Assembly: GCF_988243305.1 (NCBI RefSeq)
Contig: NZ_OZ547136.1
DNA: 64,000 bases
Reading direction: 5' to 3' (one strand)
Positions 758 to 52,362 of this stretch are shown here, one piece after another. The notes under the pieces were generated by a model that was not told the origin of the DNA, made no database searches, and was given only the letters and a program-made list of their open reading frames with translations. Position 1 is the stretch's first letter. The number at the start of each line of letters is the position of its first letter. A program made the translations under genes and the position numbers.

Positions 758-2278
758 TTAATGCAGCACCGTCACCGCGTCTTCCAGTCGGCTGGCGCGG
801 TGTTTCACCATCGCCGACACCTGCGCACTCTCTTCCACCAGCTCGGCATTTTTCTGGGTGATGAGGTTAAGCTCATCCACTGCACGGGTCAGGCTGGAAA
901 GCCCATCGGCCTGTTCCAGCGTTGAATGGCTAATCTGGGCGATCAACTGGGTGACGTTTTTCACCTGTGCCACAATATCTTCCATCGTCCGTCCGGCTGC
1001 GTGTACCTGCTGCGAACCGGATTGCACCTTATCAGCACTGGCATCAATCAGCTTGCGAATATCGTTGGCAGCATTGGCGCTGCGGCTGGCTAAATGACGC
1101 ACTTCCCCTGCCACCACTGCAAAACCTTTGCCTTGTTCGCCGGCTCGTGCCGCTTCCACCGCCGCATTCAGGGCCAGAATATTGGTCTGAAACGCAATAT
1201 CGTTAATCAGCGAAGTAATGGTGCCAATGCGCTGGGTACTGTCGGCGATATCGTCCATTGTCTTGATCACCGTGGTCATCGCCTCCCCGCCCTGCACTGC
1301 CGCATTACTGGCAGTGATAGAAAGTTTATCGGCAGCCGACGCCGTGGCAGAGTTCTGTTTCACCGACGCCGCCATTTGGTTCATGGTCGCCACCGTTTGC
1401 TGAACGTTATCAACTGTCTGCTGGGTATGTTCGTTCAGTTCATCGGTGCCTTTCGCCAGCGTCTCACTGCCATTTCTGACACTGGACACCTGGCTTGAGA
1501 CATCGTTAATTAGCCAACGGCACATCAGGCCAAGCTGCCCTACCGCGCGTAATGTCAGCCCCAGCTCATCGCTGCGATTCAGATGCTCAACACTATTACG
1601 CTCTCCGGTCGCCACCTTCAGTGCCTGACGGGCGACATTTTCTATCGGGCGGACAATCTGCCATTCAAAACAGGCGCTTGCCAACAATACCACTAACGCA
1701 CAGAGGATATACGTCACCACCGGGGCAGCAACAAACCAAAGCATGACCGCCAGCAAGATAAACATCAGGGTCATCACGCCACGCGCCCGCCAGCGAAGCG
1801 GTAATGAAGGCAGTTTACCCAGCCAGCCTTTACGCACCACCAGGCCTTTATGAATACGTTTACTGGTACGTCCGGCGTTCAACGCTTTGTACAGCGGCTC
1901 CACCGCCGCGATCTCTTTATCCGTCGCCCGGGTACGAATCGACATATAGCCACTGATTTTTCCCTCGCGCACCATCGGTACCGCATTGGCCCGCACCCAA
2001 TAATGGTCGCCATTTTTGCGGCGATTTTTCACGATGCCGCTCCATGGCTCCCCTTTTTTCAGGGTGAACCACATATCTGCAAACGCCGCTTTTGGCATAT
2101 CCGGGTGACGCACCATGTTGTGCGGCTGCCCTTGTAACTCTTGCAAGGTATAGCCGCTCACCTGCACAAAAGTGTCATTAGCATGAGTGATATAGCTTTG
2201 CAGATCGGTAGTGGACATCAGAGTGGTATCGTCCGCCAGCGGGGTATTTTGCTGGGTGACATACGGATGAGAAGACAT
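758..2278 (-). CDS. aer: aerotaxis receptor Aer (PAS-FAD sensor plus MCP signalling domain)
   Basis: 506-aa ORF; N-terminal PAS region and C-terminal methyl-accepting signalling domain; identical in length to K-12 Aer. Confidence 0.95.
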
Positions 2279-2327
2279 GTTCGCGTCCTGTGCAGGTTAT
2301 ATGGTTGTTAACTTCTTGTCAGAGTTT

Positions 2328-2355
2328 ATGTCGGCCCCGCTGCGGTTATCTTTAA
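2328..2355 (-). promoter_or_regulatory. candidate sigma-28 (FliA) promoter for aer
   Basis: minus-strand reads TAAAGATA-N11-GCCGACAT, close to sigma-28 consensus TAAAGTTT-N11-GCCGATAA, about 50 nt upstream of the aer start. Confidence 0.55.
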
Positions 2356-2560
2356 CTGATTAATTTGATTTAGATCGCAATTTGCGATTAAAGCATAAAT
2401 CTAATCCCTTGATTTAAAATACTTTCACTCTGTTACTATACGAAAACGTTAATTATCTTGCCCAAAAATCAGGCAGTTGTTGCCCTGAAAGTGTGCATTT
2501 GCGCAGCAATCGCCAAATCCATACCCGACAAAAACCGTGCAAAATAACAACAGATGTTAA

Positions 2561-17189
<14,629 letters not shown>

Positions 17190-34108: not shown

Positions 34109-34771
34109 ATGGAACTTTTGACCCAATTGCTGCAAGCCCTGTGGGCGCAGGATTTTGAAACCCTGGCCAATCCGTCGATGATTGGCATGTTGTATTTTGT
34201 CTTGTTTGTAATTTTGTTCCTTGAAAACGGCTTGCTTCCGGCGGCCTTTTTACCGGGCGACAGTTTACTGGTGTTGGTCGGCGTATTGATTGCGAAAGGC
34301 GCGATGGGCTATCCGCAAACGATTCTGCTACTGACCGTTGCCGCCAGCCTCGGTTGCTGGGTCAGCTATATTCAGGGGCGATGGCTGGGCAATACCCGCA
34401 CAGTACAAAACTGGCTATCTCATTTACCCGCGCATTATCATCAACGCGCACACCATCTTTTTCATAAACACGGTTTATCGGCGCTGTTAATTGGTCGCTT
34501 TATTGCATTTGTCAGAACACTGCTGCCGACGATTGCCGGATTATCAGGGCTGAATAACGCGCGCTTTCAGTTCTTCAACTGGATGAGCGGTCTGCTGTGG
34601 GTATTGATCCTGACAACTCTGGGTTACATGCTCGGCAAAACGCCGGTATTTTTAAAGTACGAGGACCAGCTGATGTCATGCCTGATGCTGCTCCCGGTGG
34701 TGCTGCTGGTGTTTGGCCTGGCAGGTTCTCTGGTCGTGTTATGGAAAAAGAAATATGGAAATCGGGGGTAA
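34109..34771 (+). CDS. yqjA: DedA-family inner membrane protein
   Basis: 220-aa ORF matching K-12 YqjA. Confidence 0.9.
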
Positions 34772-51372: not shown

Positions 51373-52362
51373 TTAAGCGTCAACGAAACCGGTGATTTGA
51401 GAGACGCGAGAAAGATCGATATTGCCGCCGGAAATAATACTGACGGTTTTTCTGTTTTGAATATATTGGTCTAATTTACCGCTTAATAATGCAGCACATG
51501 CCAGAGCGCCTGCGCCTTCGGTGACGACTTTATTGCGCTGAATTAAGGCAATCATACTGTTTCTGATTTCATCTTCGCTGACCAGCACGATGTCATCGAC
51601 TAATTCACGAACGATTTCGTAAGTTAAATTACCCGGGCGGGAGACATCACAACCATCCGCCAGGGTGCCGGTAGTTCGGTGCGTGGTTATTTCTCCGGAG
51701 TGGAAAGAAGCCGCCATGCCGTGAACGTTTTCTGACTGTACGCCAATAACACGAATGGTCGGGTTAATAGATTTTATTGCCACCGCAATACCAGCAATTA
51801 AACCGCCACCACCAATTGGCACAATCACGTTATCGACATCATAGAGATCTTCCATAATTTCCAGACCAATCGTTCCCTGGCCAGCAATCACTTTCGGATC
51901 ATCGTAAGGTGGGATAAAAATACGGCCTTCCATTTCGACAATTTCGCTCACTTTAGCGATAGTGTCGTTGAAGTTATCACCATGCAGAACGACTTCTGCG
52001 GAGTAGTCGCACGTTGCCGCTACTTTGGATTTCGGCGCGCCTTTTGGCATCACCACTTTACCGTCGATACCCAGCATCGCGCAGGAGAGCGAAACCCCTT
52101 GCGCATGGTTGCCCGCAGAGCAGGCCACTACACCTTTACGTTTTTCCGCATCGGTCAGTGAACTTAATTTATTAAATGCGCCACGAATTTTAAATGAACC
52201 GGTACGCTGCATGTTTTCGAATTTGAGGAATATTTCACCTTTGCAACGTTCACTAAAATAGTTGGAGCGAGGCATGCCTGTTTTATAAATTCGCCCAGCC
52301 AGTCGTTGTTTAGCTTCAATGATGTCATCAATAGCAACCGGGAGATCGTATGTAATATGCAT
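51373..52362 (-). CDS. tdcB: catabolic threonine dehydratase (PLP)
   Basis: 329-aa ORF with PLP-lysine motif (SFKIRGA). Confidence 0.95.

Follow-up and report, generated by a model that had tools for sequence, protein, structure and literature searches.

The window analysed here, a 64,000-nucleotide stretch of contig NZ_OZ547136.1 (assembly GCF_988243305.1), is part of an E. coli chromosome, and the motif considered in this study lies in the intergenic region between aer and ygjG/patA. Over the 601 bases surrounding the motif, several E. coli chromosomes, among them that of strain 042, match the window with 100% identity, and in these genomes the flanking genes are annotated in RefSeq as aer (aerotaxis sensor receptor) and ygjG/patA (putrescine aminotransferase). 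The aer gene starts with an ATG at position 2278 and is separated from ygjG/patA by 417 nt. NCBIfam matches identify its 506-aa product as a protein with a PAS domain at the N terminus and an MCP signalling domain. The original prediction offered the motif as a sanity check on the annotation, and the assignment of aer to the minus strand of this chromosome is sound. The features of the aer side of the locus are as follows, with promoter positions numbered from the transcription start.

758-2278, minus strand: aer coding sequence, encoding the 506-aa aerotaxis receptor (from the ORF list and from RefSeq, where strains with the sequence of the window carry the entry "aerotaxis sensor receptor Aer")
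2279-2322, minus strand: 44-nt 5' UTR, from +1 to the aer ATG
2285-2289, minus strand: Shine-Dalgarno-like AGGAC, 6 nt 5' of the ATG, within a 5' UTR block conserved across genera; the ribosome-binding function is putative
2322, minus strand: aer transcription start (+1), mapped here from the numbering in PMC2859248, with about 1 nt of leeway either way
2328-2335, minus strand: -10 octamer GCCGACAT, positions -13 to -6, with the CGA core (-11 to -9) at 2331-2333
2336-2346, minus strand: 11-nt spacer ACCGCAGCGGG between the octamers, of fixed length in all orthologues, its sequence not kept
2347-2354, minus strand: -35 octamer TAAAGATA, positions -32 to -25, assigned by direct reading, published mutants and orthologues
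2361-2382, minus strand: CRP site AATTGCGATCTAAATCAAATTA, with the core TGCGA-N6-TCAAA at 2364-2379 and the centre at -49.5, between 2371 and 2372

On the other side of the intergenic region, the mechanically called patA/ygjG ORF spans 2585-4075 on the plus strand (496 aa), and the RefSeq start at 2696 gives a protein of 459 aa. In the long ORF, the alignment with the NCBIfam models of putrescine aminotransferase begins only at residue 35-45, in favour of the downstream start. A sigma-54-like sequence, TGGCGC-N5-CTGCA, is found at 2634-2649 (plus strand), 47 nt 5' of the RefSeq start. Since the count of this pattern across the window is below chance, the site is a mere lead for a divergent patA promoter.

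The combination TAAAGATA-N11-GCCGACAT has a single exact occurrence in the window, at 2328-2354 on the minus strand. Read along that strand, the region runs ...AATCAGT TAAAGATA ACCGCAGCGGG GCCGACAT AAACTC TGACAAGAAGTTAACAACCATATAACCTGCACAGGACGCGAAC ATG. The motif had earlier been assigned to 2328-2355; it is indeed present there, with the end coordinate off by one, as position 2355 takes in one extra T. Its placement about 50 nt upstream of the aer start agrees with the distance between the end of the -10 octamer (2328) and the ATG (2278). The motif has the features of class 3 promoters recognized by FliA (sigma-28), that is, a bipartite sequence resembling TAAAGTTT-N11-GCCGATAA, a spacer of exactly 11 nt, and an intact CGA core.

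This motif is an already known and thoroughly characterised sigma-28 promoter co-activated by CRP, described in publications from 2007 to 2014. Reportedly, the aer promoter had been predicted by Park et al. in 2001. From the -35 octamer through the ATG, the window is completely identical to E. coli K-12 MG1655, hence the K-12 experiments carry over directly. All promoter experiments cited below were done in K-12 rather than in the window strain, in which, judging from this identity, sigma-28 and CRP would be expected to act in the same way. Hollands, Lee, Lloyd & Busby 2010 (Mol Microbiol 75:1098; PMC2859248) list the aer promoter in their Table 1 as TAAAGATA-n11-GCCGACAT. Primer extension yielded one aer product of "approximately 148 nt", which places +1 six bp 3' of the -10 octamer (PMC2859248). 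The numbering in that study (CGA at -11 to -9; T at -32, A at -30, and G at -28 of the -35 element) was used here to derive +1 at 2322. The mapped start is thus compatible with the predicted -10 element. Promoter melting, as detected with KMnO4, extends from -10 to +4 (PMC2859248), corresponding to positions 2319-2332 of the window. The aer start also lies 18.5 bp 3' of the motif centre, and the distance between these two points is 18-23 bp at 38 of 52 FliA sites (bioRxiv 188474). The start-site assignment thus draws on one primer-extension experiment, KMnO4 footprinting, and a general rule relating ChIP motifs to transcription starts.

The dependence of the promoter on FliA has been established by several approaches. 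Replacement of CGA by GCT in the -10 element (aer206) left 12 Miller units of lacZ expression instead of 223, which equals the level measured when FliA is absent (PMC2859248). Individual substitutions in the -35 element (at -32, -30, and -28) brought it down from 223 to 23-50 Miller units (PMC2859248, Table 1). In vitro, the sigma-28 holoenzyme both makes the aer transcript and melts the promoter, and the sigma-70 holoenzyme does neither (PMC2859248). In the genome-wide study of Fitzgerald, Bonocora & Wade (PLoS Genet 2014; PMC4183435), a FliA ChIP-seq peak was reported at aer (FAT 21) with the motif TAAAGATAACCGCAGCGGGGCCGACATA, a 28-mer identical to positions 2327-2354 of the window. In the same study, FliA ChIP-qPCR showed enrichment at aer (p = 0.0097), and the aer RNA level was 225 in motile MG1655 versus 12 in the fliA deletion, a significant difference (PMC4183435). 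In the microarray data of Zhao et al. 2007 (PMC1935009), aer was 2.0-fold down in the fliA mutant and 2.8-fold up on FliA overproduction. Promoter mutants, in vitro transcription, ChIP, and RNA from the fliA deletion, all obtained on the identical sequence, therefore agree on a FliA promoter for aer, and the proposed membership of aer in the late flagellar class is consistent with them.

Taken by itself, the match to the FliA consensus is only moderate, and the description of the site as near-consensus was overstated. Compared with TAAAGTTT-N11-GCCGATAA, the aer site matches at 12 of 16 positions. Since it has four mismatches, a consensus search of the whole window allowing up to three missed it; the sole match found, at 51723, is at chance level. 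We further built a positional weight matrix from the 51 other FliA sites in Table 2 of Fitzgerald et al. 2014, with aer left out. The scan did recover the aer site, with 14.5 bits for the core columns, which is a middle rank (26 of 52, leave-one-out). Moreover, GCCGACAT has C at a position where GCCGATAA has a strongly conserved T (frequency 0.90, pseudocount-smoothed, in 24 sites with FAT above 4, aer excluded). The aer and trg promoters (14.5 and 14.3 bits, respectively) have the weakest cores by this matrix among the classical chemotaxis and flagellar promoters, ycgR excepted.

A rival explanation is that the sequence is a chance FliA-like match, with the real aer promoter being a sigma-70 promoter elsewhere in the intergenic region, acting via CRP or under an indirect influence of FlhDC. 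FliA-like sequences are indeed near chance frequency in the window: eight sites have four or fewer mismatches, with 5.2 expected from first-order Markov simulations. Six window positions reach 14.5 bits with the core columns versus 0.8 expected, and with the full 28-column matrix one to three sites as good as aer are expected per 64 kb. A sigma-70-like sequence, TGGGCA-18-TATAGT (9 of 12 matches), is present on the aer strand at 2435-2464, and an older study, as it is cited in PMC4183435, named aer as a FlhDC target. However, sigma-70-like matches occur in the scanned interval 2200-2700 at the frequency expected from shuffled sequence (1 versus 1.2), and the FlhDC assignment is stated by Fitzgerald et al. 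to be an indirect effect (PMC4183435). The decisive evidence against this explanation is experimental: the only primer-extension start is that of the sigma-28 promoter, mutation of either octamer abolishes aer expression, and the sigma-70 holoenzyme gives neither an aer transcript nor melting (PMC2859248). The conservation of the octamers across genera with a divergent spacer also argues against it. The site at 2435-2464 is ruled out as the aer promoter by the in vitro and primer-extension data, under the conditions tested, and the explanation as a whole is very improbable. Thus on the sequence match alone the aer motif is not convincingly beyond chance, but in context it is far beyond it, given the correct strand and distance, its presence in 18 of 18 orthologues with diverging spacers, and the direct experimental proof.

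Even less probable is that the FliA holoenzyme binds here and yields mainly non-coding or antisense RNA rather than functional aer mRNA: the majority of the 52 FliA ChIP-seq sites are intragenic and lack a detectable regulated mRNA (PMC4183435), and the window itself has one weak intragenic site, in yqjA (34474-34501), but the aer site is intergenic, points toward aer with a start 44 nt 5' of its ATG, and is required for both aer mRNA and aer::lacZ expression, so that a non-productive site is ruled out by the RNA-seq data from the fliA deletion and the lacZ data on promoter mutants.

The FliA promoter of aer is, in addition, co-dependent on CRP bound at -49.5, a point missed in the original prediction. 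We placed the CRP site at 2361-2382 from the published centre and the mapping of +1 given above. Its core, TGCGA-TCTAAA-TCAAA (2364-2379), matches TGTGA-N6-TCACA at 8 of 10 core positions and begins 25 nt 5' of the -35 octamer, the same offset as in the trg promoter of E. coli (MG1655 sequence). With FliA supplied independently of CRP, the aer fusion gave 223 Miller units of lacZ when CRP was present and 53 when it was not (PMC2859248). CRP was also needed at aer in vitro at a low polymerase concentration (PMC2859248). Shifting the CRP site by 5, 8, or 12 bp, to -41.5, -44.5, -54.5, or -61.5, abolished the sigma-28-dependent activation (PMC2859248). FeBABE footprinting showed that the alpha-CTDs flank CRP on both sides, with the downstream one abutting the -35 octamer, an organisation different from that of CRP promoters belonging to class I or to class II (PMC2859248).

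A genome scan with the Aer protein yielded 80 loci, of which 78 were usable. Among them, 18 are close orthologues with 73-95% amino-acid identity, from Escherichia, Citrobacter, Enterobacter, Pseudescherichia, Phytobacter, Pluralibacter, Cedecea, Pseudocitrobacter, and other genera. In all 18, the top sense-strand match to the FliA matrix within the 250 nt searched upstream of the gene lies 42-55 nt before the ATG. The motif in these orthologues is TAAAG(A/T/C)(T/A)A-N11-GCCGA(A/C)A(T/A), with no change in TAAAG or GCCGA in any of the 18. The spacer, 11 nt long throughout, is rich in G+C in E. coli but in A+T in Citrobacter and Enterobacter. Retention of the octamers with a divergent spacer sequence constitutes a classical phylogenetic footprint. 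In the complete set, matches of at least 10 bits occur upstream of aer homologues in 42 of 78 cases on the sense strand, compared with one on the antisense strand and none in the intragenic control. As judged by these matches, FliA-type promoters of Aer homologues are predicted well beyond the Enterobacteriaceae, for instance in Pantoea, Erwinia, and Burkholderia.

The layout of the CRP site is conserved as well. Each of the 18 close orthologues has a CRP-like core, TG(C/T)GA-N6-TC, at the same distance from the -35 octamer (offset -25), and when offsets from -60 to -16 were scanned for the CRP core (16 of the 18 entered), -25 scored best. Outside the close orthologue group this offset is not generally kept. 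Another conserved feature is the non-consensus base in the -10 octamer: position 6 is C in E. coli and Pseudocitrobacter and A in all others, and the consensus T was found in none of the 19 enterobacterial sequences. This conservation across genera of the full layout, with CRP at -49.5, the -35 and -10 octamers, and the non-consensus -10 base, is what the present analysis adds to the published description.

Downstream of the start, a 5' UTR block, TTAACA...ATAACCTGCACAGGACGC (2279-2306, minus strand), is common to several genera, in contrast to the neighbouring promoter spacer, and ACAGGA/AAGGA is conserved near the aer ATG in the line-up of orthologues. An Rfam search of the aer leader gave no match, and folding of the leader compared with shuffled sequences revealed no structure above expectation (z = +0.73). 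The block may reflect a translation-initiation or operator constraint.

Taken together, these data identify 2328-2354 (minus strand), almost certainly, as the core of the single E. coli aer promoter, dependent on both sigma-28 (FliA) and CRP, and none of the evidence gathered contradicts such a promoter. Experiments in K-12 have established where transcription starts, that it depends on sigma-28, and that both octamers as well as CRP at the exact spacing are required. In the mechanism that we propose for the window, the FliA holoenzyme would recognise the -35 octamer TAAAGATA and the -10 octamer GCCGACAT 11 nt apart, melt the DNA from about -10 to +4, and start at 2322, giving the 44-nt leader. 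Cyclic AMP-CRP centred at -49.5 (2361-2382) would recruit the polymerase through contact of its activating region 1 with the alpha C-terminal domain. Efficient initiation would need cAMP-CRP because the core matches the FliA consensus only moderately; this reading of the weak core as the cause of the CRP dependence fits the published recruitment idea. Given the requirement for both factors, aer would be expressed late in the flagellar cascade, following the release of FliA by FlgM, and preferentially under conditions of active cAMP-CRP.

The closest parallel to this arrangement is the E. coli trg promoter, also dependent on sigma-28 and CRP. It is alike in layout, with TGTGA 25 nt 5' of the -35 octamer and an 11-nt spacer, and its core score is similarly modest. 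It differs in the gene served, which encodes a ribose/galactose chemoreceptor, and in its octamers, TAAGTAAT and GCCGATGA, and it lies outside the window. The class 3 promoters of tar, motA, fliC, flgMN, tsr, and yhjH share with aer the sigma factor, the sequence TAAAGTTT-N11-GCCGATAA, and the logic of FlgM release, but they are much better consensus matches (17-23 bits). At the canonical class 3 promoters, CRP binding is not clear or the effect of CRP is not direct (PMC2859248), whereas aer needs CRP. At Class I (-61.5) and Class II (-41.5) sigma-70 promoters, as at aer, CRP recruits the polymerase via activating region 1 and the alpha-CTD. However, the aer site is centred at -49.5, a position from which sigma-70 promoters are activated very weakly, and moving it to either the Class I or the Class II position costs aer its sigma-28-dependent activation (PMC2859248). 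The aer promoter is instructive: besides an alternative sigma factor it requires a global activator, and one bound at an atypical position.

The absence of T at position 6 of the -10 octamer in 19 sequences, the -49.5 register in at least eight named genera, and the low scores of the aer and trg cores suggest a further, tentative idea: the aer promoter might be kept deliberately sub-optimal. We regard this as possible but rather unlikely, as is any post-transcriptional or operator control added by the conserved 5' UTR block. If the promoter is indeed kept weak, selection would maintain the dependence on the activator, so that energy taxis would be under a conserved AND-gate combining FliA with cAMP-CRP. 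The comparative point on the sub-optimal aer core was not made in the published work.

Of 5426 complete E. coli genomes, 5421 contain the 84-nt promoter segment, in every case with at least 95% identity, and 1141 of the 5421 (about 21%) are identical to the window over this segment. Among the alleles sampled, the most divergent ones retain both octamers and the CRP core without change; they vary at 2357/2358, in the spacer, or in the leader. The same locus in K-12 has an identical CRP site, -35 octamer, spacer, -10 octamer, and 5' UTR. From the CRP site to the ATG, the two differ only at 2357, where the window has A and K-12 has G. This base, at -35 counted from +1, falls in the gap separating the CRP site from the -35 octamer and is near the proposed contact of the downstream alpha-CTD. 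Three further substitutions relative to K-12 lie 5' of the CRP site, at 2385, 2388, and 2393. The polymorphism at 2357-2358 comprises ATCAG, found in the window and in about 21% of complete genomes, ATCGG in K-12, and ATTGG in strains S14, Esc3, and JJ1886.

Two individual cases were seen among these genomes. In E. coli EC21Z-151 (NZ_CP101197.1, 688627-688816), a fragment of an IS3-family transposase replaces the leader from about +34 onward; here the promoter is kept and aer has probably been lost or displaced. Of the 5422-5425 places matching the aer promoter region, one is in a plasmid record, not a chromosomal one.

A perfect 7-1-7 palindrome, ATCGCAA-A-TTGCGAT (2374-2388, minus strand), overlaps the upstream half of the CRP site. 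It is kept in Escherichia and Citrobacter, partly kept in Pluralibacter, and not kept in Enterobacter. The palindrome could be a site of a second dimeric regulator or a coincidence.

Two other FliA-like sequences of the window deserve mention. The sequence AAAGCGACCAATTAACAGCGCCGATAAA at 34474-34501 (minus strand) is the same as the weak intragenic FliA ChIP-seq site (FAT 2) within yqjA reported by Fitzgerald et al. 2014. Its core score, 15.2, is slightly above that of the aer promoter, and the distance from aer to yqjA in the window is about 3.1 kb longer than in K-12. The top full-length score of the window, 17.2 bits over 28 columns, belongs to TATGGAAGATCTCTATGATGTCGATAAC at 51829-51856 (minus strand), which ranks second to the yqjA site with the core columns; none of the 52 FliA sites published has this sequence. 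Its -35 element is poor, and the match is probably due to chance.
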